NCBI GenBank assembly: GCA_030765185.1
Contig: JAVCDE010000026.1
Location: 108,007-172,006, forward strand
DNA length: 64,000 nucleotides
Origin: Candidatus Aceula meridiana
GTDB taxonomy: Bacteria; Omnitrophota; Gorgyraeia; Zapsychrales; Aceulaceae
Reading direction: 5' to 3'
In this document: one piece after another, positions 29,460 to 53,700 of the stretch
Numbering within the stretch: the first letter of the stretch is position 1
Layout of the letters: every line of letters begins with the position of its first letter
Notes under the pieces: generated by a model
Told to the model about the DNA's origin: nothing
Database searches by the model: none
Seen by the model: the letters and a program-made list of their open reading frames with translations, nothing else
Made by a program: the position numbers and the translations under genes

Positions 29460-29472
29460 GGAGTAATTTCTT

Positions 29473-34113: not shown

Positions 34114-36069
34114 ATGAAAAAATCTTCGTTTTATAAAAGCTTCTTCCCACTTTGGGCCTGTGTTTTATTTTTTTGTTTTTGGTCTAGTGTCCTATCATAC
34201 AAATATCATTGCCTGGGATATACAGACTGGGACCTCGCCTTGCATTCTCAGACAATGTGGCAACTGACTCAAGGGAGTTGCTTTAATTCTCTTCTGGGGT
34301 GTAATTTCTTAGCCAACCATCTTAATTTTATCGCTTTTCTTTTTGTGCCCATTTACAAAGTTTTTCCAAGCCCATTGACACTACTTTTTCTCAAAGTTTT
34401 ATCGTATACCATAGGAGCAGCTGTTCTTTATAAAATTTCTGAGAAACACAACGGTCCTAATGTTGCAAAGTTTTTAATGTTGCTGTATGCGATTTTTCCT
34501 ATAACAATTTTTTCATTGAGCTTTGAGTTTCATTTTGAAAGTTTAGCTGTAGGATTTTTATTTTTAATGTTTTATTTCTTTGAGGAAGAGAACATCGCTG
34601 CTTTTTTTATTATGGCCTTTTTAACAGCTTCCTTAAAAGAAAATATGCCTTTGATATTAATAACTTTTGGTATCTATGGGTTTTTTGCGAAAAAAAGAAA
34701 AATGGTTTGGGGTTTGGCTTTGATTCTCTTAGGAATTTCTTTCTTTTATCTTGGAGTATTTGTTGTTGCTCCTTTTGCGCGTAAAGAGCTCCTTGTTCCA
34801 TATGTGTATTCTGCTCAATATCAACAAATCGGAGTTTCATCAGGTGGAAATTTTAATTTTTTAAATTTTGATATTTTTAAAATAGCGAAAATTTTGTTTA
34901 CAAAAAGTAATCTTAGTTTTTTTCTTAAAATGTTTGGCCCGTTGTTTATTGCTTTGTTTAGGCTGGACATTCTTTTTCTGGGAAGTCCGATTATATTGCA
35001 AAATATGTTGTCTTCTTCTTTTCAGCAGCAGACTATCTATTATCATTACACAGCGACCGTGCTTCCGTTTATTTTTATTGCAACAATTTTTGCGCTGAAG
35101 AAGTTTTCAAAAGTTTTAAAACGAAGGACATATGTGATTCTTTTTTTGTGTATTTTGCTGCTGAGTGCTGGGCGATTTTTGTTGTATGGCGTGAGCGTTT
35201 GGTTTCCGCGTATAAAGTATTGGAAAAACACCGATCAGCTTTTGAAGATAGTGATCTCGAATCCTCCTATTCAGTCTAATTTTCAATTTAATTATTTGGA
35301 CTATAAGAAGAAATTGATGAAAAGAGTTCCCAAAAAGGTTCCTGTTTTAGCAACGTTTGAATTTTTACCAGAATTCTCAAAGAGGCCATTTGTATATTCT
35401 TTTCATAACGTATTTGAAGGAAGAAATTATCTCACGGGTGATAGCTCATTTCAATTGTCAAACAATGTTCGGTATGCATTGATAAACTTCTATGATAGGT
35501 GGATGTCGATTATCGTAGATCGTCGGGGATATGAAAGAGCTTATCGATTTCTTGAAGACAACGACTGGTTTGTTTCGGAGGCTTTTGGGGACATTGTTCT
35601 GTTCCAAAAGGATGACCCCGAAAAGGTAAGACTAATCGAGAGGTCTCTTAAGAGCTTTCTTCCTAAAGAAGAGAATTCTGGTTTTTTTATCAGTGAAGAC
35701 TTTGAGTTGCTTAAATGCAAAACCATCCAGGTTCCGGATAACAATAAATTAGCGCTGACATTTTTTTGGAAGTCGAGAAGTCCAGTAAAAGACATATATT
35801 CGATGATATTTTTTATTGAAGGTAGCGATCCGACTATCGTTTATCCGCCGAGAGATATTGGTTATTCGGTGCATCCGACTTTAATGTGGGAAGAAGGGGA
35901 ATATATTAAAGAAAAGTATTGGTTGCCGCTTCCTGATTTAAAGCCAGGAAGTTATCGCCTTAAAGCGATTATTTTTAATATTAAAAATAGTATAATTTCA
36001 GATATCAAGAATTTAAAAACAAATAATGTTTCAAAAGAAATTATCGTAGCATCTTTTGAGATAGAATAG
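34114..36069 (+). CDS. polytopic membrane protein with C-terminal soluble domain, GT-C-like (DUF2079-like)
   Basis: More than 10 TM helices. A DWD acidic pair (YTDWDLALH) sits in the first extracytoplasmic loop. The C-terminal ~250 aa are soluble. Located in a glycan locus. Confidence 0.4.
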   Translation: MKKSSFYKSFFPLWACVLFFCFWSSVLSYKYHCLGYTDWDLALHSQTMWQLTQGSCFNSLLGCNFLANHLNFIAFLFVPIYKVFPSPLTLLFLKVLSYTIGAAVLYKISEKHNGPNVAKFLMLLYAIFPITIFSLSFEFHFESLAVGFLFLMFYFFEEENIAAFFIMAFLTASLKENMPLILITFGIYGFFAKKRKMVWGLALILLGISFFYLGVFVVAPFARKELLVPYVYSAQYQQIGVSSGGNFNFLNFDIFKIAKILFTKSNLSFFLKMFGPLFIALFRLDILFLGSPIILQNMLSSSFQQQTIYYHYTATVLPFIFIATIFALKKFSKVLKRRTYVILFLCILLLSAGRFLLYGVSVWFPRIKYWKNTDQLLKIVISNPPIQSNFQFNYLDYKKKLMKRVPKKVPVLATFEFLPEFSKRPFVYSFHNVFEGRNYLTGDSSFQLSNNVRYALINFYDRWMSIIVDRRGYERAYRFLEDNDWFVSEAFGDIVLFQKDDPEKVRLIERSLKSFLPKEENSGFFISEDFELLKCKTIQVPDNNKLALTFFWKSRSPVKDIYSMIFFIEGSDPTIVYPPRDIGYSVHPTLMWEEGEYIKEKYWLPLPDLKPGSYRLKAIIFNIKNSIISDIKNLKTNNVSKEIIVASFEIE

Positions 36070-36088
36070 AAAAGTAGAGGACGCCTGC

Positions 36089-36946
36089 ATGATAAGGTCT
36101 TTGCGTATTTATCAATGGATAAAGAATTTATTTATTTTTTCTCCTCTTATCTTTGGCCAAAACTTTTTTAATTTTGAAAAATTTCAAGCAACTTCATGGG
36201 TTTTTCTTGGGTTTTGTGCGCTTTCCAGCTGTATTTATATTATCAATGATTTTATTGATAAGGAGCGGGACGCTCAATCGCCTTATAAAAATAATATTTT
36301 TGTCCAACGCGGCGTTGTCAAAGCACGACCAGTGCTTTTTTTAAGCGGTTTTTTATTTTTGTTAGGATGTATATTGTGTGCGAAAGTGAATCAATCGGCA
36401 TTTTGGATAGGGATTGGTTATATAATTCTTAATGTTATTTATTCGCTATATGCAAAACAGTTTATTATTATCGATGTTTTTTTCATTTCTTTGGGTTTTC
36501 AAGCGAGGTTGTGGGCTGGAGGAGTTGCCTCTGGGATTTTTCCGTCTTTTTGGCTTCAGGCATGCATCTTTTGCCTCTCGTTATTTCTTGGGTTTGCAAA
36601 AAGGCGTAGAGAAATATATTTGCTAAAAGGGTTAGCTATTCACTATCGGGAAAACCTTTTAAATTATTCTGTTCGATTGTTAGATATTCTTCTTTTTGGC
36701 TGCGCAGGGCTGACCGCTTTATTTTATACAGCGTATGTCTTTTTATCTTTCTCCGCGAGGAAGATCAGCCCTTTTTGCATAAGGCTTTCTGTTGTTCTTG
36801 TGGTTGTTGGAATCATAAGGTATCTTTGTCTTGTTTATTCCGACAAGAAAAGAAGCGATCCAAGCGAATTGATTTTATCTGATATTTTTGTATTAAGTGT
36901 AATTATTATATGGGTGGCTTATATTTTTATTTTATTGTACAGATAA
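36089..36946 (+). CDS. UbiA-family polyprenyl-phosphate phosphoribosyltransferase-like (DPPR-synthase type)
   Basis: LRIYQWIKNLFIFSPLIFG ... YIINDFIDKERDAQSPYKNN matches the RxxQWxKN / NDxxDxExD signature of decaprenyl-phosphate phosphoribosyltransferases. Confidence 0.65.
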   Translation: MIRSLRIYQWIKNLFIFSPLIFGQNFFNFEKFQATSWVFLGFCALSSCIYIINDFIDKERDAQSPYKNNIFVQRGVVKARPVLFLSGFLFLLGCILCAKVNQSAFWIGIGYIILNVIYSLYAKQFIIIDVFFISLGFQARLWAGGVASGIFPSFWLQACIFCLSLFLGFAKRRREIYLLKGLAIHYRENLLNYSVRLLDILLFGCAGLTALFYTAYVFLSFSARKISPFCIRLSVVLVVVGIIRYLCLVYSDKKRSDPSELILSDIFVLSVIIIWVAYIFILLYR

Positions 36947-36966
36947 AGACTGTTAAATCATAAAGC

Positions 36967-37680
36967 GTGGTAGCCGTGAGAAGAAAATTTTTATATGCGT
37001 TAATTTTATTTTTTTTAGCAGTTTTTTTATTTTATTCCTGGATGGATGATCACAGTCGAGGATTAGATATTTATTTTGTGCGCCATGCTGAAACAGTTGC
37101 CAATGCTACAGGTGATTATAATGCAGAAAACCAAAAAGAATTTACAAAAAAAGGATATAGGCAAATACAGAATTTGACAAGAATTTTAGACAAGATGTCT
37201 TTTGACCATGTTTTGGTTAGCCCTAAATATCGGACGAAAAATACAATTCTGCCGTATTTAAAGAAAAATAATTTAGTTGGACAAATTTGGCCTGAAGTGG
37301 CGGAATGTTGTTGGCAAGGGGATGAACATATGCCTGCCTCAGTGGGTATCCCTTTTGGGAAAATTATTAACATAAAGAAAGAAAACTTTCGTTTTTTTAA
37401 ACTTAGAAGTTCATCCGCGGATAGATTTTATAATCCTCAAACATATAGCGATGGAATAGAGCAAATAAAGAGGGCTTGTGAATTAATTGAAAGAAAGTAT
37501 TCGGGGACCGGGAAATCTTTACTAATTGTTAGCCATTGGCTCGCAACAAGCCGCATGCTAGAAATGTTCTTAGGGATAGAAATAAAAGGCCGTTTTAATA
37601 TTAAAAATGCAAAACTAATCCATTTGCGGAAAGAAGCAGGTGGAAAATATCGGCTAATGACAACAGTAGATGCTTTTTAG
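36967..37680 (+). CDS. histidine phosphatase (PGM-like) family protein
   Basis: IYFVRHAETVANATGDY is the RHG-type catalytic motif. N-terminal TM anchor. Confidence 0.7.
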   Translation: MVAVRRKFLYALILFFLAVFLFYSWMDDHSRGLDIYFVRHAETVANATGDYNAENQKEFTKKGYRQIQNLTRILDKMSFDHVLVSPKYRTKNTILPYLKKNNLVGQIWPEVAECCWQGDEHMPASVGIPFGKIINIKKENFRFFKLRSSSADRFYNPQTYSDGIEQIKRACELIERKYSGTGKSLLIVSHWLATSRMLEMFLGIEIKGRFNIKNAKLIHLRKEAGGKYRLMTTVDAF

Positions 37681-37690
37681 ATGATAAAAA

Positions 37691-38827
37691 ATGAATCAAC
37701 CTAAAATAGGCATTAAGACAATTGTTTTTTCACAGGCATCAGGAAGAGTCAAAGTTCTTAAGTTAATTGACTATTTTTTGGGAACGTTTGTAGCAACTAT
37801 TCTTCCGTCACAAGCAGTCTTTTTTAAGAAGCAATTTAAAGCATCAAGAATTTTGATTATTAGACCAGGAGGAATAGGGGACGCAATCTTTTTGATTCCC
37901 GCTATCAAAGAGATCAAGAAGCAACTATCAGGAATAGAGATTGATGTTCTTTGCGAAAAACGAAACAGACAAGTATTTTATCTTGAGAAAGATTTGGTAA
38001 GAAATATCTATTGCCGAGAAAAAATAAGGGATATGTGCGTCGTTTTTAATAACACATATGACGTTATTTTTGATTCTGAACAATGGCATTATCTTAGCGC
38101 GGTCTTCGCCTCTTTTTTAAAATCAAAAATAAGGGTTGGGTTTGCGACGCGCCCTTTAAGAAAAAAGTTGTTTAACTGTCGAATAGATTATGATGTTAAC
38201 GCCTATGAGTTGGATAATTTTAAGAATTTATTTGGATGCATTCTTAAAAAAAACGCAGGTCAGAAAGATATAAATAATTGCATCTCAATTGCTCAGCAAG
38301 AAGTCGTGCCAGCATCATGCCAAATATCAAGTGATTATGCAGTATTTGCCATTGGCGCAAGTATACCTGCGAGAAAGTTGAGAAGTGAGCAGATAAAGAA
38401 AGTAGTTAATATACTCATAGAGAGAAATCTAAATGTTGTTTTGCTTGGAGGGAAAGAGGCTGTCTCTTTAGGGCAATGCATAGATGAGTCTTTAAATGAT
38501 GAAAGGGTACATAACTATACGGGAAAGACTAGTTTAGCAAAAAGCGCTGATTTGATAAGAAATAGTAAGCTATTTATTGGCTCTGATTCAGGGATAATGC
38601 ATTTAGCGTGTGCTGTCGGGACTCCAGTCCAAGCAATTTTTGGTCCAGGCAATAAAAATAAATGGGGTCCACAAGGAGAAAAACATTTAATAGTCTCAAA
38701 GGGTCTAGAGTGCTCTCCTTGCACGGTATTCGGATATACAAACCCAACATGTAAGAGAAAATATTTATGTATGCAGGATATTGATATGAAGCAATTCTTT
38801 GATTCTATCAAAAGAATATTATGTTGA
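37691..38827 (+). CDS. glycosyltransferase family 9 (heptosyltransferase-like)
   Basis: ILIIRPGGIGDAIFLIPAIKEIKKQ N-terminal motif and a C-terminal GSDSGIMHLACAVGTP region. Confidence 0.75.
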   Translation: MNQPKIGIKTIVFSQASGRVKVLKLIDYFLGTFVATILPSQAVFFKKQFKASRILIIRPGGIGDAIFLIPAIKEIKKQLSGIEIDVLCEKRNRQVFYLEKDLVRNIYCREKIRDMCVVFNNTYDVIFDSEQWHYLSAVFASFLKSKIRVGFATRPLRKKLFNCRIDYDVNAYELDNFKNLFGCILKKNAGQKDINNCISIAQQEVVPASCQISSDYAVFAIGASIPARKLRSEQIKKVVNILIERNLNVVLLGGKEAVSLGQCIDESLNDERVHNYTGKTSLAKSADLIRNSKLFIGSDSGIMHLACAVGTPVQAIFGPGNKNKWGPQGEKHLIVSKGLECSPCTVFGYTNPTCKRKYLCMQDIDMKQFFDSIKRILC

Positions 38828-39735
38828 AATCTATAAGGACATATCGTCTGGCGAAGGATGTTTGTTGTGCTATTTGCAGGAGTCAAGAAGCAAAAGAGAT
38901 ATATGAATATTCTTATGAAAATAAAGAATATTTAATAGTGCAATGTTTGTCCTGTGGCCATTTATTTATCGCTTCTAATCTTTTAGTAAGTTTATCATCG
39001 CGCAGCATGGAAACAATTGAAGATGCTGAAATGCATGGTAGTCGCGCAATGAAGAATTTACATAAGCAATTTATTATAAAAAAAGAAATCAAGAAGACAA
39101 GACAGATTATAAGCAAGCCGCATCCCCGACTTTTAGACATTGGATGCGGAACGGGCTGGATCACAAATATATGGAAAGAAAGTGGTTTTGATGTTGTTGG
39201 GCTGGAGCCTTCACAGCAAAGGGCAAGAATCGCTGAAAGCAAATACAGCTTTCCTGTTTGCAAATCATATATTGAGGATTATTTTCCAGAAGAGAAGTTT
39301 GATGTGATTATCCTGCGTCATGTTTTAGAGCATATTGAAAATCCGACGGAGATATTAAATAAAATAAGAAGTTGGCTGGGCGCAGGAGGGATGTTAATTA
39401 TTACAGTACCCAATATAAATTCGATTGGAAGATATTTGTTTAGGAAGAATTGGGAATGGGTTTTGCCGTGGCATCTACATTTTTTTAAGCCAGACACCCT
39501 AATGGCCCTTACTCAAAAAACAGGTTTCCAAAAAGTGCATTTTTACCAAACACCGTCTCCTTTGTGGTATCCAGCAAGTTTTGGGAGAATCTTTAGAAAA
39601 GGGAGTAAGCTGAGGCAATATTTTTGTCAGGCACCTAGCGTGATTAAGCTGTTACCTTTTTTTCCTTTGATCTTAATTGGGTACATCTTTAATTTAAATG
39701 ATAATATGACACTATTTTTGAAGAAAGATGCATAA
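38821..39735 (+). CDS. class I SAM-dependent methyltransferase with N-terminal Cys4 ribbon
   Basis: LLDIGCGTGWIT (motif I). CAICRS ... CLSCGH. The start overlaps the GT9 stop. Confidence 0.75.
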   Translation: MLKSIRTYRLAKDVCCAICRSQEAKEIYEYSYENKEYLIVQCLSCGHLFIASNLLVSLSSRSMETIEDAEMHGSRAMKNLHKQFIIKKEIKKTRQIISKPHPRLLDIGCGTGWITNIWKESGFDVVGLEPSQQRARIAESKYSFPVCKSYIEDYFPEEKFDVIILRHVLEHIENPTEILNKIRSWLGAGGMLIITVPNINSIGRYLFRKNWEWVLPWHLHFFKPDTLMALTQKTGFQKVHFYQTPSPLWYPASFGRIFRKGSKLRQYFCQAPSVIKLLPFFPLILIGYIFNLNDNMTLFLKKDA

Positions 39736-39858
39736 GAGTGATTTTATTGGATGACTATCAGGAAAGATCAGCTAAGCCATTTTTTTAATTTTTTTAGAAA
39801 TCAAAAGTTTGTGGAGATATTTTTATCAAAGTCATTCAACAGCGAATGAGCCGATGAT

Positions 39859-42177
39859 ATGGACAAGAAGAAACTAAAAATTGTTTTTTATCGACATAGC
39901 CTATTGAGCCGAGGTGGTGACAAGATGATTATTTCCTATGCTAATTTTTTGTCAAAGCAAGGGCATGATGTTTGTTTGTATGCGAATATTTTTAAGACAA
40001 AATTTTTTGTTGATGAAAAAGTATCCGTTAAGCGAATTCCCTTAAGAACAAAATTTGGAACGATTTTGTGGGCCCTCCTAAAGGACATTGATGCTGACGT
40101 TGTTATCGCAGATATTATTGCAATGTCAGTATTTTTGTTTGCCCGAAATACAAAGCGTGTTTTGTATTTTGCACAAGATTATGATATTTTTTATTACAAA
40201 AGTATTGTGCTGCGCGTTTTAGTCTGGTTTTTTTATGTTGTTGGTTTAAAAGTTTTCAGGATTCCCTGCCTTGCAGTATCTGAAGGACTAAAAAAAGAAC
40301 TGAGTAGATTTAATAATGATATTAGTGTTGTCCAAAACGGGATTGATCTTAAGATTTTTTCACAGCAAGGAGACAGAATTCCAGGAGAGCATAAAAAATC
40401 AATTTTAATTTTTGCGCGGAAAGACTCAAGAAAAGGTTTGGATGTTTCAATAAAAGCATTAAAGGATTTTAATCTTCCTGATGCAGAAATTTGGGTAATA
40501 GGAGAGGAGCTTAGGGGCGAAGATTTTTCTATGCTTGTTCGGAATTTTGGCTATGTTTCCCCTGAAAGGGTTGCGATGATTTTACGAAGCGCAGCTGTTC
40601 TTTTGTATCCGAGCTACCATGAAGGCTTTGGGCTATTGGTTCTAGAGTCTATGGCCTGCGGCTGCCCCGTGGTAGCGACAGATACGGTTGGATTTATTAG
40701 GCATCAAGAAACAGGCTGGTTATCCTCTCTCGGTGATCCAGGCAGTTTTAAGGCGGGAATTGTTGCCCTGTTTGAGGACTACTCTTTTAGAGAAAAAATT
40801 GTTCAAAATGGTCTCCATCTGACAAAGCAATATGATATAAAAAAAAGCTGTTGGGATTTTGAAAAAGAGATATCGCAAAAGGTTGGTCAGATTAAAGAAA
40901 GAAAAAATGCAAAGGAACATAATTTGAAAGAAAGTTATAAAGACTATAAGTTCTATAATTTTCCTAAAAAATTATCTGTTGAGGATTATTACCAAGCAGA
41001 AAAAGAATTACTTTTATTTCTTTCAACAATCCCATGGATTAAGTCTGTCTATTATTATGGGTCTTATCCCGAATCTTTTATTCCGGGTTTATCCGACATT
41101 GACTTTATTTGCGTTATAGATCCTGCAATGAAGCACGATTTTTACCAAGTTTACCGATGGCTTAAGAAACATAAGTTTTTTCAAAATTTTGTTTATGATC
41201 AGGCTCCTTATTTTGTATCTGAGGATGTTTTTAGAAAGAGCCCTTATTATTTAACGAATTCCAGCTGGAGTTATAAATACAAATCCGGTGAGAGAATTAT
41301 TTTTCAAGATATTGATAAGACTCAAAAGTATTTTGTTTTATTGGTTCAGAATATAAGTTACGTCATTTTTGCTTTATCCCAACTAAATTTTTATTTAAGA
41401 ATAAGAGGTGTAAATGTTAGGAGATCACTCAATTTGTTAAAAGGGATAAGATCCAGAATTGAAGAGCTAAGAGGTTTGGATTTCTTAAATCCGAGGTGTG
41501 AAGAATTTCTAGAAGAGCTTCAAAATATTCGTAAAAATTGGTTCTTACTATCAACTCAAAAACAAAAATTAGAGATTTTACAAATGCTTGTAACAGGGAA
41601 ATGCCTTCTTGAGGAAATCGTCATATTTTTAAATAAGCATGCAGATGGCTTTCTTTTTACAAGAGCAAAAAATAAGAGAGAGGACCCTATTTTATTAAAA
41701 ACAGAAAGAAATATTTTGGCTATTTTTTCAGATAAGAGGTGGGAGCAAAGAGGATCTTCTTTTAGTCATAAAAGAATTTTCTTGGGTAACAAAATGCCAG
41801 TTTTCTTTTATCGATTAATGGATTTTTCTTGTTGGAATATTGTTGTCTTGCCGGAGAGTTTAGCTAATTACTTCTTTGCTATTTTAAGTTGTAAAAATAG
41901 TTTTAGCGGAAAAATAAAATCTTCTCTTATGTCGTCTCGTAATTTCTTTTTAACAAAATTAAATTGCCCCTTTTTAAATATTATACAAACGCAGGCCGAG
42001 TTTTATGATCGCTATTGGCAATTTTTGAACGCAACTCGATACGGGGCAAGCTTTTGTCCGTTTGTGCAACTTTTTATCAACGAAAGCATCGAGCTGTTTA
42101 GCCGTAATAATATTTTGCGTAAAATGATAAGATATTTATCGCGTTATAATTTTTGTTCCATTTTGAAAAAAATGTAG
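39859..42177 (+). CDS. GT4 glycosyltransferase fused to a C-terminal nucleotidyltransferase-fold domain (paralog 1)
   Basis: The N-terminal ~370 aa carry the GT4 motif EGFGLLVLESMACGCPVVATD. The C-terminal ~400 aa start YNFPKKLSVEDY ... YYYGSYPESFIPGLSDIDFICVID, fitting the Pol-beta NTase motif [GS]x9-13DxD. Confidence 0.6.
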   Translation: MDKKKLKIVFYRHSLLSRGGDKMIISYANFLSKQGHDVCLYANIFKTKFFVDEKVSVKRIPLRTKFGTILWALLKDIDADVVIADIIAMSVFLFARNTKRVLYFAQDYDIFYYKSIVLRVLVWFFYVVGLKVFRIPCLAVSEGLKKELSRFNNDISVVQNGIDLKIFSQQGDRIPGEHKKSILIFARKDSRKGLDVSIKALKDFNLPDAEIWVIGEELRGEDFSMLVRNFGYVSPERVAMILRSAAVLLYPSYHEGFGLLVLESMACGCPVVATDTVGFIRHQETGWLSSLGDPGSFKAGIVALFEDYSFREKIVQNGLHLTKQYDIKKSCWDFEKEISQKVGQIKERKNAKEHNLKESYKDYKFYNFPKKLSVEDYYQAEKELLLFLSTIPWIKSVYYYGSYPESFIPGLSDIDFICVIDPAMKHDFYQVYRWLKKHKFFQNFVYDQAPYFVSEDVFRKSPYYLTNSSWSYKYKSGERIIFQDIDKTQKYFVLLVQNISYVIFALSQLNFYLRIRGVNVRRSLNLLKGIRSRIEELRGLDFLNPRCEEFLEELQNIRKNWFLLSTQKQKLEILQMLVTGKCLLEEIVIFLNKHADGFLFTRAKNKREDPILLKTERNILAIFSDKRWEQRGSSFSHKRIFLGNKMPVFFYRLMDFSCWNIVVLPESLANYFFAILSCKNSFSGKIKSSLMSSRNFFLTKLNCPFLNIIQTQAEFYDRYWQFLNATRYGASFCPFVQLFINESIELFSRNNILRKMIRYLSRYNFCSILKKM

Positions 42178-42187
42178 GAGTGCCAGA

Positions 42188-43471: not shown

Positions 43472-43480
43472 AAAAGAGTC

Positions 43481-44977
43481 ATGGCAAAGAAACAGCTAAT
43501 ATTTCTTACAATTATTTTACTTATTGCGATGTATTTTCAAATACATGATCTTGATCAGGAGAGTTTTCGATCTGACGAGGGATTCTCGGTCATGACAAGT
43601 CACCTTAGCTTATCCAAGATTATCCAAAAAACTTCTCTTGATGTTCATCCACCTCTTTATTATTTTATTTTACATTATTGGATGGAGTGGCTTGGAGATT
43701 CAGAATATTCAACGCGCCTGCTTTCTGTTGTTTTTGGTTTTTTGTTAATTTTCATGGTTTATCGATTAGGGTGTCTTATTTTCGATAAAGATGTAGGGCT
43801 TTTAGGGGCTTTTTTTGTTGCGCTTTCTAAGTTTCATATCAAGTATTCGCAAGACGCAAGAGGCTATAGTCTTTTAGCTTTTTTGGCGGTAGCATCGATG
43901 CACAGCTTTATAAAACTTTTTAAAAAAGAAAATAGGAATATTGACTATCTTGGATATATTTTCTTCAGCACTCTTTTAATATACACGCATATCTACGGTT
44001 TATTTATTATTATAGCGCAAAATATTTATTTTATAGTGTTGTGCTATTTTTCAAAATGGAAACGTAATTTTTGTTTTAAGAAATGGATTTTTTTGCAGAC
44101 GACACTTTTTATTTTGTTTCTTCCATGGGTTAGGGTTTTTATCGGGCAGGTATTTAGAATACAGGGGCACTATTGGATACGTGATCCTAGCATCCTGACG
44201 ACTTTTAGATTTTTAATTATTATTCTTGGTTCTAGGTCGTTGCTTTTTTTATTTTCAGTGTTGATACTCTTCGCCCTGGTAAGGCTTAGAAATAAGGATG
44301 AACTCTTTTTCAAAAAAAGCTTTTCAGAATCTTCTAATCCTTGTCACTCTAATAACAAATTGACGTTTTTTGAAAAGAATTTTTTTCTTCTTATGTGGAT
44401 TTTGACTCCCATGGTCCTGCCGTTTATCATTTCTAAGATTTCCACCCCCATTTACCATCACCGATATCTCATGGCGGCTTCGCCGGCTTTTTTCTTATTA
44501 GCGGCCAGAGGAATGGTGAATATAAGGAAATATAGCAAATATGTTGGTCTTTCTCTGCTCTTTATTATCATTTCTTTTTCTTTATTAGAAATCAATGAGT
44601 ATTATGACAAGGTGAAAAAGCATCAGTGGCGAGAAGCAGCTTATTATATTGAATCAAAAGCAAAAACTCAGGATTTATTATTGTTTAACGCAGGATTCTG
44701 TAGGGAAACTGCTTTTGCCTATTATTCTCGGAGAGCGGACATCACCAGGAGATCTTTTCCTCCAAAAGCTATTTTTGCTAATGAAGGCAACATAAGGAAT
44801 CTTGATCCGATCATTGAGCCCTATGATCGGGTTTGGTTTATATTGGCGCATAATCACGACCCTAAAAAGCTGATACTTAAAAAACTCAGCAAAGAGTATT
44901 GCTTGGTTGACTATAAAGAATACTTCTTAATAAAAATATTTTTATTTGAGAAAATCAACCCTAAGGCTCGGGAGTGA
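43481..44977 (+). CDS. PMT/ArnT-family GT-C glycosyltransferase (COG1807-like)
   Basis: Polytopic protein with DVHPPLYYFILHYWMEW in the first periplasmic loop, the conserved D-x-HPPL motif of ArnT/PMT-type GT-C enzymes. Confidence 0.65.
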   Translation: MAKKQLIFLTIILLIAMYFQIHDLDQESFRSDEGFSVMTSHLSLSKIIQKTSLDVHPPLYYFILHYWMEWLGDSEYSTRLLSVVFGFLLIFMVYRLGCLIFDKDVGLLGAFFVALSKFHIKYSQDARGYSLLAFLAVASMHSFIKLFKKENRNIDYLGYIFFSTLLIYTHIYGLFIIIAQNIYFIVLCYFSKWKRNFCFKKWIFLQTTLFILFLPWVRVFIGQVFRIQGHYWIRDPSILTTFRFLIIILGSRSLLFLFSVLILFALVRLRNKDELFFKKSFSESSNPCHSNNKLTFFEKNFFLLMWILTPMVLPFIISKISTPIYHHRYLMAASPAFFLLAARGMVNIRKYSKYVGLSLLFIIISFSLLEINEYYDKVKKHQWREAAYYIESKAKTQDLLLFNAGFCRETAFAYYSRRADITRRSFPPKAIFANEGNIRNLDPIIEPYDRVWFILAHNHDPKKLILKKLSKEYCLVDYKEYFLIKIFLFEKINPKARE

Positions 44978-45047
44978 ATTAATAGTTATAAAAATTTTTA
45001 GGATTTAAGAATTAATTTATAAAGTCTGTTTTTTCAGTGTTTACTTA

Positions 45048-46034
45048 TTGGATAATTTTGAAAGGATGGCTCTTGTGAGGATAGGAAAAGAATGGAAAGT
45101 TTTAAGAATTTCTAGAAAAAAGGTATTTTTGATAATGCTGCTACTTGTAGTTACTTTTTTCTTCTCGAGGAAGCCAGCTGATGTCCCTGAGCCAGTAGAT
45201 ATCCTTAATAATGCTCCGTTTGGGCATCCTTTTATAATTTATGAAAATAATGATTTTTATGCTATCTATAAGCCCCCTGGCTACATTGTTAGCGTTTCGT
45301 CAACTAATAAGCATGGAAATTTAGAGAATTTAGATCCAAATGGGCTTTTTCTTCAGAAGTGGTTGTCAGATAATTTTACGTACCCTATATCTAAGAATCC
45401 AAAGTATCGATACGGCCTGTTGCATCGATTAGATAAAAATACTTCTGGGGTTGTCCTTGCGGCTAAGAATGCTGCTTTTTGGGATTATGGATGGAGAGAA
45501 TTTTTTTATAAAAGAAAAATAAAAAAGAAGTATTTTGCCTTGGTTCATGGGAGGGTAGATCAATGCGGAGGAGATATTGCTAGAAGCATTGCGTGTTCAC
45601 ACACAAGAAACTTTAGATCTTTTACATGCAGGACCGTTCATCCAAAAAAAGGAAAATGTGCATTCTCTCGATATAAAGTTCTAGATTATTTTCAGAATAA
45701 AACAACAAAAGAATATTATTCTTTATTAGAGGTTCAAATCATAACAGGGAGAACTCATCAGATTAGAGTACACGTGTCTTCTATAGGGCATCCAATAGTT
45801 AGTGATGATAGATATATAGATGATAAAAATATGTTAGATGCGGACAGGGATTTCTGTCCAAGGATTTTTTTGCATGCAAAAGAAGTTTTTTTTCCTTATC
45901 ACGGTAAGATGATAAGAATTATTTCAGAGTTGCCAGAGGATTTAAAAAAAGCTTTGAGCCGGATAGATTTTTACGGGAAATGCTATAAGGAAGAAGAAAC
46001 TTATGGCAAAGCAGAGAGCAAAGGAGAACAATGA
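45048..46034 (+). CDS. RluA-family pseudouridine synthase with N-terminal TM helix
   Basis: HRLDKNTSGVVL is the catalytic Asp motif, and GRTHQIRVH is present. An N-terminal hydrophobic segment (VFLIMLLLVVTFFF) is present. No S4 domain. Confidence 0.7.
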   Translation: MDNFERMALVRIGKEWKVLRISRKKVFLIMLLLVVTFFFSRKPADVPEPVDILNNAPFGHPFIIYENNDFYAIYKPPGYIVSVSSTNKHGNLENLDPNGLFLQKWLSDNFTYPISKNPKYRYGLLHRLDKNTSGVVLAAKNAAFWDYGWREFFYKRKIKKKYFALVHGRVDQCGGDIARSIACSHTRNFRSFTCRTVHPKKGKCAFSRYKVLDYFQNKTTKEYYSLLEVQIITGRTHQIRVHVSSIGHPIVSDDRYIDDKNMLDADRDFCPRIFLHAKEVFFPYHGKMIRIISELPEDLKKALSRIDFYGKCYKEEETYGKAESKGEQ

Positions 46035-47305
46035 AAAGCACACCTTTTTTTTGTAATTTTCCGAAGAAATTAACTTTAAGAGATTATCAGGACGCAAAAA
46101 AAGATATTATTTGCAGCTTAGAAAAAGATTCTAGAGTTTCTTCTATTTATTCTTTTGGAAGCCGCGTAGAGGAAGGGTTAGATCCTGGTATTTCTGATAT
46201 GGATTTTCTTGTTTTAATAAAGAAAAAAGTGCGTGCGGAACTGGAAAATAAAAATCGATTTGAAGATAAGGCCTACGGAAGCGAGATCATTCGGTATATT
46301 TTAATGAACCAGCCAGCATGTTATCCGATAAGCGAGGGTTATTTAAGGCATTTTTCGTATTTTTTATGTAACGCTACAACACGTTTACAATGCGAGAAAG
46401 GGTATCAAGTTGACTACGGAGAGTTTTGTGAGACAAAAGGTGTAGAAGATAAAGTGGTTGTTTTGGGTGTCATTGCCCAAATTATAGAAATGTCGATAGC
46501 TAAAATTTGTATTTTACATGGAAGCCTCAACTCTGGAAGAATGGATGCGCGATTAATTTTAAAAATTTTACGCGGGATAAAAAACAATATTAAAAGGATG
46601 AAGGTTCTAGGATTTACCGATACTCGGTGGGATAATTTTATTGATTACATATCGGTTTTTAGGAAGGATTGGCATTCTTTTGAAAAGAAGGATCAAGAAA
46701 CTTTTTTAAAAGAGCAAAGGCTTCTTGGGTTAGAAATTTGTATCGAAATTTTATCAGAGCTTGATCAATTTCTTAGAAATAATATCTTCACTTCTTTGCA
46801 TGGAAGCAAGACTGCTCGAAATCTTTTGATGAAAGTTCATGATAATCGATTTATTTTATTTTCGGATTTTTTATGGAATAAAAAGCAGAATCTTTTCTTA
46901 GCTTTAAATAAAATAAGAAAAATAAATTTAAAACCTTGGGATATCGTTGTTCTGCCAGAATCGGTCTTTTTTTATTTTAGTTGTCATGCACAAATAGACA
47001 GCTTGTTAGGGCGATCCATAAGATCGATGATGGCATTCCCTGGGGTGGACATATCGGTGGAGAAGGTCGATGATTCTTACAGAGACGCTTTTTTTAAGCA
47101 AGCAGAGATCTATAGTCAATATTGGAATTTTTTATTAGAAAATGGTTTTAGTTATGGAATCGGGGGGCTAACCAGATTATTTTATAGGGAGCATCCCTTA
47201 AGAAATTTAAAGTCTAGAATAAAGAGGGTCATTTCTTTTTTTTATAAGCGAAATGCCTTGAGAAAGATTCAAAAGTTGTTTGGATGTGATACGCACGGAT
47301 TATAA
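46031..47305 (+). CDS. nucleotidyltransferase-fold protein, paralog 3
   Basis: CNFPKKLTLRDY ... IYSFGSRVEEGLDPGISDMDFLVLI. Overlaps the RluA stop by 4 nt. Confidence 0.5.
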   Translation: MKSTPFFCNFPKKLTLRDYQDAKKDIICSLEKDSRVSSIYSFGSRVEEGLDPGISDMDFLVLIKKKVRAELENKNRFEDKAYGSEIIRYILMNQPACYPISEGYLRHFSYFLCNATTRLQCEKGYQVDYGEFCETKGVEDKVVVLGVIAQIIEMSIAKICILHGSLNSGRMDARLILKILRGIKNNIKRMKVLGFTDTRWDNFIDYISVFRKDWHSFEKKDQETFLKEQRLLGLEICIEILSELDQFLRNNIFTSLHGSKTARNLLMKVHDNRFILFSDFLWNKKQNLFLALNKIRKINLKPWDIVVLPESVFFYFSCHAQIDSLLGRSIRSMMAFPGVDISVEKVDDSYRDAFFKQAEIYSQYWNFLLENGFSYGIGGLTRLFYREHPLRNLKSRIKRVISFFYKRNALRKIQKLFGCDTHGL

Positions 47306-47415
47306 GAATAAACTTTAAGACGTAAGGTTCTTAGAGTTCAGATGGTACCAAAGTTAATTTTTTTGTGTATAAAGTTTTTTTTGAGGTGAGTGTGCTTTGA
47401 ACAGCAGCCTATGCG

Positions 47416-48144
47416 TCAAAGAATTTCTTCCTGATGGGATATTTCTGATTTGTTTAGAAATATGATTCGATCTGCCAGTTGCTGCATGAGAGAGAGATCG
47501 TGAGTTACCAGCAGAAGAGTTTTTCCTTTAGTTTTTAGTTCATTCATTTTGGCAAGGCATTTTCTTTTAAAATCTTCATCGCCCACTGCAATAATCTCAT
47601 CGATTAAATAAATATCTGCCTGGCTATGAATCGCGATAGAAAATGCCAGTCGTAAATACATACCCGAAGAATATTTTTTTACGGGCATATCAATAAATTC
47701 TTGGATTTCAGAGAAATCAATAATAAGGTCTAACAGATTCTTTATCTCAGGAATTTTCATCCCCAAGATTGCACCGTTAATAAAAATGTTTTCCCTTCCT
47801 GTCAAGTCTTTATGAAATCCTGCGCCAATTTCAAGAAGAGGCGCTATTCTTCCTTCTGCCTTGATTGTTCCTTTTGTCGGATAAGTTACTCCTGCGATTA
47901 GTTTTAGGATAGTACTTTTCCCAGCACCATTTGGTCCATAAAAGCCTAAAGTTTCTCCTTGAGCTATTGTCAGGTTGATTTTTTTTAGTGCCCAGAATTC
48001 GTCAGAACTGAGGTCTTTATTTTTTTTAAATTGAAATATATTAGCAATATCTTCACGCAATGATTTATGAAAGATTCTACTGCGTGAATATTTTTTCCAG
48101 ATATTTTTAAATTCGATTATTGGAGCATTAGATGACATCGGCAA
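47416..48144 (-). CDS. ABC transporter ATPase, Wzt/TagH-like (polysaccharide export)
   Basis: Walker A GPNGAGKST, signature YSSGMYLRL, Walker B IYLIDEIIAVGD. 242 aa, no C-terminal carbohydrate-binding domain. Confidence 0.8.
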   Translation of the reverse strand: MPMSSNAPIIEFKNIWKKYSRSRIFHKSLREDIANIFQFKKNKDLSSDEFWALKKINLTIAQGETLGFYGPNGAGKSTILKLIAGVTYPTKGTIKAEGRIAPLLEIGAGFHKDLTGRENIFINGAILGMKIPEIKNLLDLIIDFSEIQEFIDMPVKKYSSGMYLRLAFSIAIHSQADIYLIDEIIAVGDEDFKRKCLAKMNELKTKGKTLLLVTHDLSLMQQLADRIIFLNKSEISHQEEIL

Positions 48145-48913
48145 ATTTTCTTTCAGCTATTTTGAAGAAAGCAAAAGACATAATTAAAAAGATTGTTCCA
48201 GCAATAAGCATAGAAAGATATTCAGTGACGTTTATTGGTTTTCCTAAGAATAGACAGATTCTAAGATTCTTGATGATATATGCTAGAGGATTTAGAAAAG
48301 TAATTATTTTAAATCTTTCAGGAAGATTGTCGAGAGAATAAAGGATGGGGGTCGCAAAAAACCATAATCTTAATAAGGTAGCAATGGCTAAGCCGACGTC
48401 TCTATAATAAACATTAATGGAGCAAAGCAGCAGAGAGAAGGAAACGGTGAATAAGATTAAAAGTATGGTTAACGGGACACAGAATAGGGCTGTTAAGGGT
48501 ATTGGAATTTTATAAAAGAATAAGATACCCGCAAATATAATTCCAGCAATTAAGAAATCAACGAAGGCGACAGCAATGCCCGACAGGGGAAGAAAAATTC
48601 TTGGAAATTTTATTTTTTTAATTAAATTATGGTGGTTTGTTAAGCTTGGAACTGAATAATTTAAAGAAGAAAGAAAGAAAGTCCACGGTAGAAGGCCTGA
48701 GTAAAAGAAGACCGGTCTTGGTAAGTTAGAAACATGAGTAGGGATGACATAAGTAAAAATAAATGTAAAAACCAACATAAAACTAAGAGGCTGAATGATC
48801 GCCCAGGCTATGCCGAAAACCGCCTGGTTATACCGAACCGAAAACTCTTTCCAGATAAAGATTAACAGTAAATCTTTACACCGTATAATGTCTTTTAGTT
48901 CGGCTAGAAGCAT
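48128..48913 (-). CDS. ABC-2 type permease, Wzm/TagG-like
   Basis: 261 aa, 6 predicted TM helices. Overlaps the ATPase gene start. Confidence 0.7.
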   Translation of the reverse strand: MLLAELKDIIRCKDLLLIFIWKEFSVRYNQAVFGIAWAIIQPLSFMLVFTFIFTYVIPTHVSNLPRPVFFYSGLLPWTFFLSSLNYSVPSLTNHHNLIKKIKFPRIFLPLSGIAVAFVDFLIAGIIFAGILFFYKIPIPLTALFCVPLTILLILFTVSFSLLLCSINVYYRDVGLAIATLLRLWFFATPILYSLDNLPERFKIITFLNPLAYIIKNLRICLFLGKPINVTEYLSMLIAGTIFLIMSFAFFKIAERKFADVI

Positions 48914-49102
48914 AATATAAAGGATGGGATCGGCATATTTTTAAGCACAAATATTTTTAATGTTAGTTTTTTAAGCCCAAATATTATTATATAATGAATA
49001 ATACCATAAAAGATTTTTTTAATAAAAATTAATTTCAGCTTCTTAGTTCTATGGTCTGTATTGCCTGAGCCCTAGAGAACAACCTTCGAGAAATAAATAA
49101 CA

Positions 49103-50572
49103 ATGAGAAATAAGCTTATTTTGCTAACAGCTATTTTACTCCTTGGCCTTTGTCTTCGGCTTCATGATTTAGGCCAAGAAAGCTTATGGAATGACGAAGG
49201 ATATTCGGTTAGGGTAAGTCACCTTAGCTTGTCTAAAATTGTCCAGAAAACTTCCCTTGATGTTCACCCGCCTTTATATTACTTTATTCTGCATTACTGG
49301 ATGGAATGGCTTGGAGACTCAGAATGCTCGATGCGCTTGCTTTCCGTTATTTTTGGATTTTTATCTATATTTATGATTTATCAGATAGGGAGTTTCCTTT
49401 TTGATAGAGACGTAGGGCTTTTAGGGGCTTTGTTCGTTGCGCTTTCTAAATTTCATATCAACTATTCGCAAGAGACAAGAAGTTACAGCCTGTTAAGTTT
49501 TTTAACCTTAGCGTCAATGTATAGCTTTATAAAGCTTTTTAAGAAAGAAAGCAGGGGCATCACTTCTCTTGCTTATATTTTTTTCAGCACTTTTTTAATA
49601 TACACGCATGTGTATGGACTATTTATCATTATTGCGCAGAATATTTATTTTATGATTCTGTATTCATTTCTTAAAGAAAGAGATAGTTTAAATTTTAAGA
49701 AATGGTTTTTTCTGCAGCTAACACTTTTTTTCTTTTTTATTCCATGGGTTAAGGTTTTTATCGGACAAGCGCTTAAGATACAGGAGCATTATTGGATACC
49801 TGAACCTACCATTGCGAAGGTTTTTGAGTTTCTAGCTGTTATCCCCGGTTCGAATCTCTTGCTTCTTTTATTCTCGGTATTGATATTTTTTGCCATAGTA
49901 AAATTTAAGAATCAGGGGAGCTGCTTTAACTTTGGGAATTTCTTACGGTCTGCCAGAATTCCCGGCTGGAAGGTGGACCCGGAAACTTTTAAAAAGAATT
50001 TTTTTCTTCTTATATGGCTTCTAATGCCGATAATTCTGCCGTTTATTATTTCGAAGGTTTCAACTCCTATTTTTTATCATCGGTATTTTATTGTGTGTTC
50101 ATCAGTTTTTTTCTTATTAGCAGCCAAAGGAGCAATCAATATAAAGCAATATAGCAAATATGTTAGTTTTGTATTTATTATTGTTGTTGCATTTCTTTCT
50201 TTGTTAGAAGTTAACAGATATTACGATGGGGTTACAAAAAGTCAATGGAGAGAAGCAGCGCATTATATTGGATCAAAAGCAAAAACTCAGGATTTATTAT
50301 TATTTAACTCAAGGTGGCAATTTGCTTTTTTTTATTATTCGCAAAGAGGCGATGTTGGTGGGAAATTTTTCCCTGGGAAGACTCATAATGTTAATGCAAA
50401 TAACACAAAGAATTTTGAGTCCATGATCAAGATTTATGATAGAATTTGGTTTTTGCATAGGGAACATCATCATCCTAAAGAGTTGATTTTTAGAGAACTC
50501 GACAAGGATCACCGCTTAATTAATTATAAGGAATATAATGGCGTAAAGATATTTCTATTTCAAAAGAATTAA
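49103..50572 (+). CDS. PMT/ArnT-family GT-C glycosyltransferase, paralog of 43481-44977
   Basis: The N-terminal 150 aa are nearly colinear with the 43481 gene (LSLSKIVQKTSLDVHPPLYYFILHYWMEWLGDSE is near-identical). Confidence 0.65.
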   Translation: MRNKLILLTAILLLGLCLRLHDLGQESLWNDEGYSVRVSHLSLSKIVQKTSLDVHPPLYYFILHYWMEWLGDSECSMRLLSVIFGFLSIFMIYQIGSFLFDRDVGLLGALFVALSKFHINYSQETRSYSLLSFLTLASMYSFIKLFKKESRGITSLAYIFFSTFLIYTHVYGLFIIIAQNIYFMILYSFLKERDSLNFKKWFFLQLTLFFFFIPWVKVFIGQALKIQEHYWIPEPTIAKVFEFLAVIPGSNLLLLLFSVLIFFAIVKFKNQGSCFNFGNFLRSARIPGWKVDPETFKKNFFLLIWLLMPIILPFIISKVSTPIFYHRYFIVCSSVFFLLAAKGAINIKQYSKYVSFVFIIVVAFLSLLEVNRYYDGVTKSQWREAAHYIGSKAKTQDLLLFNSRWQFAFFYYSQRGDVGGKFFPGKTHNVNANNTKNFESMIKIYDRIWFLHREHHHPKELIFRELDKDHRLINYKEYNGVKIFLFQKN

Positions 50573-52547: not shown

Positions 52548-53050
52548 ATGGAAAAGTTTTTAGCCCTTCAGGCTGATATTACCCAATTAGATGTTGATGC
52601 GATTGTTAATGCGGCTAACTGTTCGCTTCTAGGAGGCGGAGGGGTCGACGGAGCGATTCATAAGGCCGCAGGTCCGAAGCTTTTAGACGAATGCAAAACA
52701 TTAGACGGCTGTAACACCGGTGATGCCAAAATAACTAAAGGGTATAGGCTGCCGGCTAAATATGTGATTCATGCGGTTGGGCCGGTTTGGGCTGGAGGGA
52801 AAAGGCAAGAGAAAGAACTTTTAGCCGCATGCTATACAGCAGGGCTCTAGAAATTGCAGCCGAAAAGGGTTTAAAATCTATTGCTTTTCCGTGCATTAGT
52901 GCAGGTGTTTATCAATTTCCGAAACAGCAGGCCGCTGAAATTGCTGTTTCAACCGTAAAAAAAAGCCTTGAACGATTCATAAAAATTGAGAAGGTTGTTT
53001 TTACATGCTTTTCCCAAAATGACCTTGAAATTTATCAATTTTTTCTATAG
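52548..53050 (+). pseudogene. macro-domain (YmdB-like O-acetyl-ADP-ribose deacetylase) gene with a frameshift near 52833-52838
   Basis: ORF1 ...[10 protein letters not shown]...[14 protein letters not shown]...LLAACY breaks, and it continues in another frame as [28 protein letters not shown]. Removing the dinucleotide 52833-52834 restores ...[11 protein letters not shown]... Confidence 0.6.
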
Positions 53051-53586: not shown

Positions 53587-53700
53587 CAGCTTTAATTACT
53601 TTTTTTTCTTTTTTGCAACTTTTTTCTTTGCAACTTTTTTCTTTGCAACTTTTTTTGCAACTTTCTTTTTCTTTACAACCTTCTTTTTTGCTTTTTTCTT
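53587..53700 (-). CDS. 37-aa poly-Lys/Ala/Val mini-protein (MAVKKKAKKKVVKKKKVAKKVAKKKVAKKKVAKKKKK)
   Basis: Strong SD (AAAGGAGGA) sits 5 nt upstream of the minus-strand ATG at 53700. A terminator lies immediately 3'. Coding comes from 15-bp tandem repeats. Confidence 0.4.
53606..53670. repeat. tandem ~15-bp repeat (GCAACTTTTTTCTTT)n inside the mini-protein gene
   Basis: About four consecutive units visible. Confidence 0.7.

Follow-up and report, generated by a model that had tools for sequence, protein, structure and literature searches.

A predicted pentofuranose-adding module with a UbiA-type phosphoribosyltransferase in a surface-glycan locus of Candidatus Aceula meridiana (Omnitrophota)

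In Citrobacter youngae O1/O2, α-ribofuranose (α-Ribf) is added to the O antigen in the periplasm by a system comprising a fusion of a polyprenyl-phosphate phosphoribose synthase (PPPRS) with a HAD phosphatase (ORF15, PPPRS-PRP), a MATE flippase (ORF14) and a GT-C glycosyltransferase with a C-terminal carbohydrate-binding module (CBM), namely ORF12, the founder of family GT136 (Kelly et al., PNAS 2024, PMC11127046). Added epimerases in such three-component systems, which are widespread, give xylofuranose (Xylf) or arabinofuranose (Araf) (PMC11127046). In the window considered here, i.e. the whole stretch of 64 kb of DNA analysed from the metagenome-assembled genome (MAG) of Candidatus Aceula meridiana (Omnitrophota), a locus at about 34-51 kb carries a gene for a UbiA-family enzyme of the PPPRS kind next to a gene for a DUF2079 membrane protein. 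We regard it as rather likely that this locus encodes an ABC-transporter-type surface-glycan pathway (O-antigen-like or lipopolysaccharide-core-like) with an extracytoplasmic module adding a pentofuranose. This kind of system is already known since 2024; what differs here is a predicted GT-C of the DUF2079 family, a histidine phosphatase predicted to face the periplasm, and a locus with neither a flippase gene nor an epimerase gene.

Like its Citrobacter counterpart, the Aceula locus combines a UbiA-family PPPRS bearing NDxxDxxxD and K-R-x-x-E motifs with an adjacent putative GT-C ending in a β-sandwich, a CBM-like domain (cf. ORF12/GT136), and it lies inside an ABC-transporter-type glycan locus devoid of epimerase, for which Ribf is predicted. 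Unlike in Citrobacter, where the phosphatase is a fused cytoplasmic HAD (PRP) domain, that of the window is separate and of an exported histidine type, the locus has no MATE or SMR flippase gene, a DUF2079 protein would serve as the GT-C and has no sequence similarity to the GT-Cs compared (PDB chains, PMT_2 paralog a and one from Niameybacter), the equivalent of Arg90 of the mycobacterial enzyme Rv3806c is lost, a GT9 gene is tightly linked and the phylum is Omnitrophota. With the mycobacterial decaprenyl-phosphate-arabinose pathway (Rv3806c, the PAP2 enzyme Rv3807c, DprE1/DprE2, Rv3789 and Emb/Aft), the locus shares a homologous first enzyme, an adjacent phosphatase gene and GT-C consumers; unlike in that pathway, the phosphatase is of the histidine type, no DprE1/E2 occurs among the scanned open reading frames (ORFs), arabinose is not expected, undecaprenyl rather than decaprenyl is the presumed carrier, and the organism, a diderm, has a Wzm/Wzt-type locus. 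Besides, the GT-Cs of the window are not Emb/Aft members, the likeness being at the fold level only. The pilin D-arabinofuranosylation system of Pseudomonas aeruginosa Pa5196/PA7 (PsPA7_6245-6251 and TfpW) likewise has a Gram-negative PPPRS homologue with a GT-C and no validated flippase, TfpW having been proposed to translocate its donor itself, but it differs from the window by DprE1/E2, a PAP2-type Rv3807c homologue, a GtrA-like protein and a pilin acceptor. To our knowledge, none of these PPPRS systems has a validated flippase. As for the ArnT and Gtr systems, in which the donors are Und-P-Ara4N and Und-P-Glc (Und-P, undecaprenyl phosphate), they also rely on a polyprenyl-monophosphate sugar, which a GT-C uses on the outer side of the inner membrane, and the DUF2079 model matches ArnT best in structure; there the donor synthase is a GT2 enzyme (ArnC/GtrB), whereas that of the window is a UbiA-type phosphoribosyltransferase.

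The genes at the core of the putative module, together with the intervening phosphatase gene, are as follows, where DPPRS stands for decaprenyl-phosphate phosphoribose synthase, EC 2.4.2.45:

34114 to 36069, forward strand: DUF2079 membrane protein, predicted GT-C (Pfam PF09852, 1.5e-44)
36089 to 36946, forward strand: UbiA-superfamily enzyme, PPPRS/DPPRS-like (best NCBIfam model NF008977, 189.5 bits)
36967 to 37680, forward strand: signal-anchored histidine phosphatase, branch 1 (His_Phos_1, PF00300, 2.2e-18)
37691 to 38827, forward strand: GT9, heptosyltransferase-like (PF01075, 1.4e-29)

In the proposed mechanism, the UbiA-family enzyme would move 5-phosphoribose from phosphoribosyl pyrophosphate (PRPP) onto polyprenyl phosphate, presumably undecaprenyl phosphate, at the cytoplasmic face of the membrane, giving polyprenyl-P-Ribf-5-P. 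This lipid-linked sugar would then cross to the inner membrane's outer face, with no flippase gene in the locus, where the membrane-tethered periplasmic histidine phosphatase would strip the 5-phosphate and the DUF2079 GT-C would put ribofuranose on the glycan; the C-terminal β-sandwich of the latter may hold the acceptor, and two PMT_2 GT-Cs encoded further downstream may also act. The acceptor backbone would be made in the cytoplasm by the GT9 and a GT4, methylated by a methyltransferase and exported by Wzm/Wzt. We infer the PRPP donor, the Ribf sugar and the acceptor, the sequence in which flipping and dephosphorylation take place and the identity of the donor-using GT-C; the evidence that carries the scheme is the family membership of the UbiA protein, the conservation of its substrate residues, the GT-C fold of the DUF2079 model, the export nature of the phosphatase and the gene linkage.

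Regarding the first enzyme, the UbiA-family protein scores 189.5, 121 and 79 bits on the three DPPRS models of NCBIfam, 116 bits on PRK08238, a model of the HAD-UbiA fusion, and at most 28 bits on the UbiA, MenA, MqnP, EboC and DGGGPS models, which cover the quinone, heme and archaeal-lipid enzymes. Its sole sequence match in the PDB is Rv3806c of Mycobacterium tuberculosis (8j8j, 3e-16), to which it is 23% identical over 278 residues (E 3e-16 with phmmer, 1.7e-14 with BLASTP), and no PDB chain of UbiA, MenA, UBIAD1 or DGGGPS was matched at E ≤ 0.01. A family profile built from the window protein and 33 homologues gives 218 bits to Rv3806c, vs. 44 to UbiA, 24 to CyoE and 15 to MenA of Escherichia coli. 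In a rough neighbour-joining tree (no support values), the window protein falls inside a 66-sequence clade; Rv3806c branches at the base of this clade, and UbiA, CyoE and MenA of E. coli lie outside.

At the residue level, 9 of the 10 strictly counted substrate-contact residues of Rv3806c are kept, i.e. R6, K12, Y50, N53, D57, K67, Y118, K123 and K171 in the window protein for R22, K28, Y70, N73, D77, K87, Y138, K143 and K191, respectively. In Rv3806c, K28, Y70 and K191 bind the ribose 5'-phosphate and the acceptor phosphate, and K87 binds the pyrophosphate (Gao et al. 2024, PMC10994848); every scorable family member keeps the equivalents of these four residues, whereas UbiA, MenA and CyoE of E. 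coli have none of them. The N-D-x-x-D-x-x-x-D motif (N53, D54, D57 and D61 in the window) is invariant in 66/66 family members, and the corresponding motif is essential in C. youngae ORF15, where it is formed by N247, D248, D251 and D255 (PMC11127046). Q135 and Y157 of Rv3806c are replaced by N and F in the window protein, as is typical for the family.

A preliminary description of this DNA, made from the sequence alone, had assigned the protein to the DPPR synthase type and had named clustering with quinone or heme prenyltransferases as the outcome that would speak against it; the model scores, the PDB match restricted to Rv3806c, the conserved phosphoribose residues and the grouping by profile and rough tree all uphold the assignment. 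That the enzyme would be an ordinary prenyltransferase (quinone, heme, chlorophyll or archaeal-lipid), in a locus unrelated to phosphoribose, appears highly improbable. The Pfam match, which is just to the generic UbiA family, and the missing superfamily-wide Arg of the first motif could be taken in that sense, but the at most 28 bits on the corresponding models vs. 189.5 bits for DPPRS, the lack of any PDB chain of those enzymes at the above threshold, the retained phosphoribose-specific residues and a gene context of glycan synthesis all point away from it. As a possible counter-example of a mis-annotated DPPRS, Ubi-297 (PMC9235831) was considered and ruled out, as it belongs to a different UbiA group.

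The DUF2079 gene, whose stop lies 19 nt before the UbiA start, encodes a protein with a confident AlphaFold2 (AF2) model (pLDDT 85.9, pTM 0.87). In a Foldseek comparison with the PDB, the best match of its membrane domain is ArnT (5f15, E 1.3e-5), followed by STT3, ALG9/ALG12, AftA, EmbC and PglB, and its C-terminal β-sandwich (about residues 485-651) weakly matches the carbohydrate-binding domain of Wzt (6o14/8dky, E ~1e-2). In an alignment of 23 homologues, D40 (in a DWD motif after the first transmembrane segment, TM1), H69, K175 and E176 are invariant; the catalytic acids of GT-Cs usually sit in the loop after TM1, the site of D40. Placed among GT-Cs by fold comparison alone, the protein is thus predicted to be a GT-C-fold glycosyltransferase with a C-terminal β-sandwich, for which the function of periplasmic pentofuranosyltransferase is proposed; a literature search on DUF2079/PF09852 returned no functional study. 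With the two PMT_2 proteins and the ABC-transporter-type glycan locus, this modelled fold is in line with the early view that GT-C-type transferases surround the UbiA gene. A distant DUF2079 member in Patescibacteria is encoded directly downstream of a small GT2 gene and, if this GT2 is a polyprenyl-P-sugar synthase, it would fit that DUF2079 proteins may pair with whichever lipid-donor synthase is present.

The order DUF2079-UbiA-GT9 is found in five independent loci, referred to by L numbers for those outside the window, namely the window, L001/L002, L003/L004, L009 from a Planctomycetia MAG and L093 from an Omnitrophica MAG. Identity to the window UbiA protein is 73% for L001/L002, 41% for L003/L004 and 37% for L009, and the DUF2079 protein of L093 is 35% identical to that of the window; the comparison with related genomes suggested at the outset therefore reveals a recurring arrangement. 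The three genes of L009 lie on the plus strand as an isolated block, flanked by minus-strand genes and with unrelated upstream neighbours. L009 also encodes, at 8707-10826 and convergent to the block, a CDP-alcohol phosphatidyltransferase plus IspD-SDR fusion (SDR, short-chain dehydrogenase/reductase; TarI/TarJ-like, as in CDP-ribitol synthesis).

This constant linkage of the GT9 gene to the UbiA and DUF2079 genes, which stand alone in L009, and the absence of a WecA/WbaP-type initiating phosphoglycosyltransferase from the locus in the Pfam scan would also suit a priming function, whereby polyprenyl-P-ribose(-5-P) would be the acceptor on which the GT9 and GT4 build a glycan that Wzm/Wzt exports and a GT-C transfers en bloc; GT9 enzymes, such as the heptosyltransferases, use lipid-anchored acceptors at the membrane. 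We consider it very unlikely, since initiating transferases are often encoded outside ABC-type O-antigen loci, no pathway is known in which a polymer is built on a polyprenyl-monophosphate-pentose, and the linkage would fit equally well a GT9 making the acceptor sugar that the GT-C decorates.

Beyond these five loci, at least 575 loci were confirmed as PPPRS relatives among the 600 pattern matches listed (one genome per species), in Planctomycetota, Firmicutes, Aminicenantes, Acidobacteriota, Bacteroidota, Chloroflexota, Chlamydiota, Gemmatimonadota, Patescibacteria and Omnitrophota, and many of these homologues are already named decaprenyl-phosphate phosphoribosyltransferase by NCBI. Considering also that similar systems were shown in Citrobacter and called widespread in 2024, the initial presentation of the pathway as unusual outside a mycobacterial context does not stand; a literature search on glycosylation in Omnitrophota returned nothing relevant. 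The PPPRS neighbourhoods were characterised by a Pfam scan of 126 immediate neighbours, BLAST clustering being too fragmented. Among these, the recurrent phosphatase partners are HAD phosphatases (9), and NAD-dependent epimerases account for 5. Distant homologues also adjoin PMT_2 GT-Cs and small EamA pairs (the pairs in Firmicutes), often in polysaccharide loci. In the Omnitrophota loci L062, L067 and L069, a PMT_2/PMT GT-C gene is found upstream of the UbiA gene, from one gene away (L067, L069) to several (L062), and loci of Acidobacteriota and Heliomicrobium have a PMT_2 gene that overlaps the UbiA gene at its end.

The phosphatase encoded after the UbiA gene carries an RHAET motif and H190. 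Its N-terminal hydrophobic segment (residues 4-22, preceded by RRK) is kept in the L001 orthologue (72% identical), which is devoid of an alternative internal Met. As a signal peptide or an anchor is found at the N terminus of all 12 of the 12 aligned subfamily members, with an AxA-type end in several, the catalytic domain is predicted to be periplasmic; the motif ECCWQ is invariant among them. The histidine phosphatases of this ECCWQ subfamily are about 230 aa long and secreted or anchored (homologues P0209-P0226); members come from Mariprofundus and various metagenomes, and the subfamily was seen in a PPPRS locus in the Aceula lineage only. The best NCBIfam match of the phosphatase, weak and below the cut-off, is the α-ribazole-5'-phosphate phosphatase CobC, and the Pfam scan found no HAD domain in the locus. 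The enzyme is a candidate ribose-5-phosphate phosphatase and, if it does remove the ribose 5-phosphate, it would act after membrane crossing, on the lipid or on the glycan, because of its predicted periplasmic location. In the preliminary description, the UbiA and phosphatase genes were likened to the Rv3806c/Rv3807c step pair: the adjacency is real and such a pairing plausible, but Rv3807c, a PAP2 enzyme, is no homologue of this phosphatase, and beyond the window L001, the closest relative, is alone in showing the adjacency; it is also the sole His_Phos_1 case among the 126 immediate neighbours.

Several observations weigh against a PRPP-fed pentofuranosylation module as outlined above. The UbiA-family protein is below the equivalog cut-off of NF008977 (189.5 vs. 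234) and below that of the other DPPRS models as well. Within the cluster of residues surrounding the pyrophosphate in Rv3806c (R22, K87, R90, K143 and Y138), the window protein has R6, K67, K123 and Y118, but Ile70 at the position of the pyrophosphate-binding Arg90, where L001 also has Ile and L003 has Gly; 63/66 family members have Arg there, as do the three E. coli outgroups, the exceptions being exactly the window, L001 and L003. Arg90 binds the β-phosphate of pyrophosphate, and the R90A variant of Rv3806c loses 77% of its activity, with 23% retained (PMC10994848). It is on account of both the cut-off and this substitution that the protein is classed, from its sequence, as a divergent member of the PPPRS/DPPRS clade with one unexplained active-site change. 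With respect to the GT-Cs, neither the DUF2079 protein or profile nor the PMT_2 paralog a matched any PDB chain by sequence at E ≤ 1, and hhalign found no similarity of the DUF2079 profile to PMT_2 paralog a or to a PPPRS-adjacent GT-C of Niameybacter (PF14264-type), so that DUF2079 cannot be merged by sequence with either family. Concerning the phosphatase, a periplasmic enzyme cannot act at the site where the product is synthesised, its closest homologue outside the Aceula lineage is encoded beside polA and unrelated genes with no PPPRS link, and L003, L009 and L093 have no adjacent phosphatase gene, L093 having a HAD gene two genes upstream. In addition, many of the 126 PPPRS neighbours are unrelated to glycans, e.g. 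methylmalonyl-CoA mutase (9) and DUF362 (9), and no MATE, SMR, GtrA or EamA flippase ORF was found in 34-51 kb, nor such a Pfam domain in the scanned window ORFs. No small membrane ORF is left unassigned in the tightly packed 34-51 kb.

The phosphatase data bear on another order of events, in which Ribf-5-P itself would be flipped and attached to the glycan by the GT-C, the phosphatase trimming it later and the loci without phosphatase keeping a phosphoribosylated glycan. The uniformly signal-bearing, hence exported, nature of the subfamily, the module without adjacent phosphatase in L003, L009 and L093 and the weak match to CobC, a ribosyl-5'-phosphate phosphatase, would agree with it, as would the precedent of cytoplasmic PRPP-dependent ribofuranosyltransferases, which transfer Ribf-5-P first and dephosphorylate it later (PMC11127046). 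There is, however, no precedent for a GT-C with a 5-phosphorylated donor, the phosphatase could equally work on the flipped lipid-linked donor, and the phosphatases of L003, L009 and L093 may be encoded elsewhere, the HAD gene of L093 being a case in point; this order is judged quite unlikely.

Regarding the nature of the sugar, no DprE1/DprE2-like or SDR epimerase was found in the locus or in the window ORFs scanned directly with Pfam, 22611-30246 being covered via synteny with L001 and four ORFs at 59218-63559 lying outside the scan. The sole SDR among the scanned ORFs is FabG, beside FabD at 24-1714, and the loci of the closest relatives L001, L003 and L093 hold no epimerase either. Since the locus is devoid of epimerase, ribofuranose is the predicted sugar according to the criteria of the Citrobacter study (PMC11127046); the original suggestion of ribofuranose rather than arabinofuranose is thereby retained as the default prediction within the scanned window ORFs. 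Alternatively, epimerases encoded elsewhere in the genome (DprE1/E2-like or an ORF13-like SDR) would turn polyprenyl-P-Ribf into an Araf or Xylf donor before transfer. In L062, L067 and L069, one or two NAD-dependent epimerase genes directly flank the UbiA gene, such epimerases are 5 of the 126 immediate neighbours, and the DNA examined is 64 kb of a MAG, all of which leaves room for this scenario; it is nonetheless unlikely, given the negative results just listed for the window and for L001, L003 and L093, and given that the published systems encode the epimerase inside the module (PMC11127046).

Returning to the predicted polyprenyl-P-ribose route, the remaining genes of the glycan locus, and a prenyl synthase encoded beyond it, are the following:

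38821 to 39735, forward strand: S-adenosylmethionine (SAM)-dependent methyltransferase with a Cys-rich N-terminal segment (Methyltransf_23, 8e-28)
39859 to 42177, forward strand: GT4 (residues ~1-340) fused to an ANT-like nucleotidyltransferase-fold domain (~350-772) (Glycos_transf_1, 1.9e-22)
42188 to 43471, forward strand: stand-alone ANT-like nucleotidyltransferase-fold protein (G-S-D-x-D motif and AF2 fold; without Pfam family)
43481 to 44977, forward strand: PMT_2 GT-C membrane glycosyltransferase, paralog a (PF13231, 2.4e-10)
45048 to 46034, forward strand: RluA-type pseudouridine synthase (PseudoU_synth_2, 2.4e-25)
46031 to 47305, forward strand: second stand-alone ANT-like nucleotidyltransferase-fold protein (NTP_transf_2, 5.3e-6)
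47416 to 48144, reverse strand: Wzt-like ABC transporter ATPase, 242 aa (ABC_tran, PF00005, 5.4e-19)
48128 to 48913, reverse strand: Wzm-like ABC-2 permease (ABC2_membrane, PF01061, 3.9e-16)
49103 to 50572, forward strand: PMT_2 GT-C membrane glycosyltransferase, paralog b (PF13231, 3.6e-12)
55556 to 56728, reverse strand: trans-type polyprenyl synthase (NCBIfam models)

The gene list of the preliminary description is sound, every ORF being present at its coordinates with domain calls that hold in the Pfam and NCBIfam scans. At NCBI, entries of this MAG match the UbiA, DUF2079 and phosphatase proteins with 100% identity. Between the plus-strand genes from 34114 to 47305, gaps are of 9-20 nt or the genes overlap, with just two larger gaps (70 and 123 nt), a tight packing consistent with a single operon. 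The GC content of the glycan locus (34-52 kb) is 33-34%, vs. 37-42% in the upstream housekeeping genes.

As to the backbone and its export, the GT9 scores about 87 bits on the heptosyltransferase I/II models, below the cut-off, and the methyltransferase start overlaps the GT9 stop by 7 nt. In the Omnitrophota PPPRS locus L069, a 704-aa fusion of a Trm112-like zinc ribbon, a SAM methyltransferase and a GT9 (14779-16893) parallels the window at 37691-39735. An ABC-2 permease and ATPase pair, as expected for Wzm/Wzt-type export, is recognised by Pfam; the two genes overlap, the Wzt-like ATPase is devoid of a carbohydrate-binding domain, and a Wzt orthologue is found in L003 and the same pairing in L093. 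The two PMT_2 paralogs are 61% identical, paralog a having a DEG motif in the first loop and about eight predicted TM segments. In NCBIfam, they weakly match the mannosyltransferase, Agl23 and STT3 models and none of the ArnT equivalog models, and no arn genes occur among the scanned window ORFs, so that the check for a lipid A-type ArnT system raises no objection to the early reading. Since PMT_2/PMT GT-Cs adjoin or lie near PPPRS genes in other loci, the two paralogs are plausible additional users of the same lipid-ribose donor.

The carrier lipid had been tentatively ascribed to the synthase encoded at 55556-56728, an idea that is rejected here. Cis-prenyltransferases of the UppS type are the source of glycan carrier lipids, whereas this trans-type enzyme is most like the GGPP/FPP synthases in NCBIfam, i.e. 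short-chain-like, and its gene lies 5 kb off the locus on the opposite strand, beyond a citrate-type transporter gene, a frameshifted macro-domain gene and a HemN-like gene.

A feature overlooked in the preliminary description is a conserved part of the locus, a trio of paralogous domains of around 400 aa whose predicted nucleotidyltransferase fold weakly resembles that of the aminoglycoside O-nucleotidyltransferases (ANT); one is fused to the GT4 (40906-42177), and the others are at 42188-43471 and 46031-47305. Shared by the three are a Pol-β-type G-S-D-x-D motif and, at the N terminus, NFPKKLS..DY; Pfam has no family specific to them. The protein encoded at 42188-43471 is 25% identical to the GT4-fused C-terminal half (E 3e-23) and 27% identical to that encoded at 46031-47305. 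The AF2 model of the 42188-43471 protein has a pLDDT of 88, and the best folds, all weak, are ANT(4'), AAD(9) and LinB. Among 1.84 billion proteins, 697 representatives of the family were counted at E ≤ 1e-3; L003 has a set of its own (7102-9303, 9263-10609 and 10689-11984), with one member fused to a GT2 and an orthologue of the 46031-47305 protein at 1.9e-107, and further members occur in unrelated polysaccharide loci.

Within the operon, the RluA-type pseudouridine synthase has an intact HRLD motif, its gene overlaps by its stop the start of the next one and is absent from L001 and L003; it is probably a passenger. Upstream, the 1149-aa protein encoded at 30549-33998 has hydrophobic segments at both termini and one GNAT acetyltransferase domain (residues 909-1020), and its gene is an insertion between an Ion_trans_2 gene and the DUF2079 gene with respect to the otherwise syntenic 73% relative L001. 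Downstream, the macro-domain gene (52548-53050) seems split by a frameshift into two ORFs (52548-52850 and 52787-53050), being either a pseudogene or a MAG assembly error, and is followed by about 0.9 kb without ORF above 100 aa, including an A/T-rich stretch of Lys-rich repeats at ~53596-53709. Rfam and tRNA scans of the window gave no match.

Taken further, the DUF2079-UbiA-GT9 arrangement of Omnitrophota and Planctomycetota could represent a distinct, self-contained type of pentofuranosylation module. In this extended reading, DUF2079 would be a formerly unrecognised family of GT-C ribofuranosyltransferases; the Aceula sub-clade would have altered the donor chemistry or the order of steps, through loss of the Arg and recruitment of a secreted phosphatase, so that a phosphoribosyl lipid or glycan would occur outside the cytoplasm; and the glycan would receive a further modification, O-nucleotidylylation or a related phosphodiester chemistry, from the three ANT-like nucleotidyltransferases. 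The conjunction of all these elements is doubtful.

The overall picture of bacterial glycan synthesis would be unchanged by the locus described here. If the proposed pathway is correct, the route from PRPP to polyprenyl-P-ribose and on to a GT-C would reach Omnitrophota, an uncultured phylum of small-celled bacteria, and the uncharacterised DUF2079 family would gain a testable function, that of a lipid-linked pentofuranose transferase. The histidine phosphatase would then be the third non-homologous candidate family of PPPRS-partner phosphatases, after PAP2 and HAD, and its predicted periplasmic location may bear on a question also raised by the mycobacterial and Pseudomonas systems, namely on which side of the membrane the late maturation of the donor takes place.

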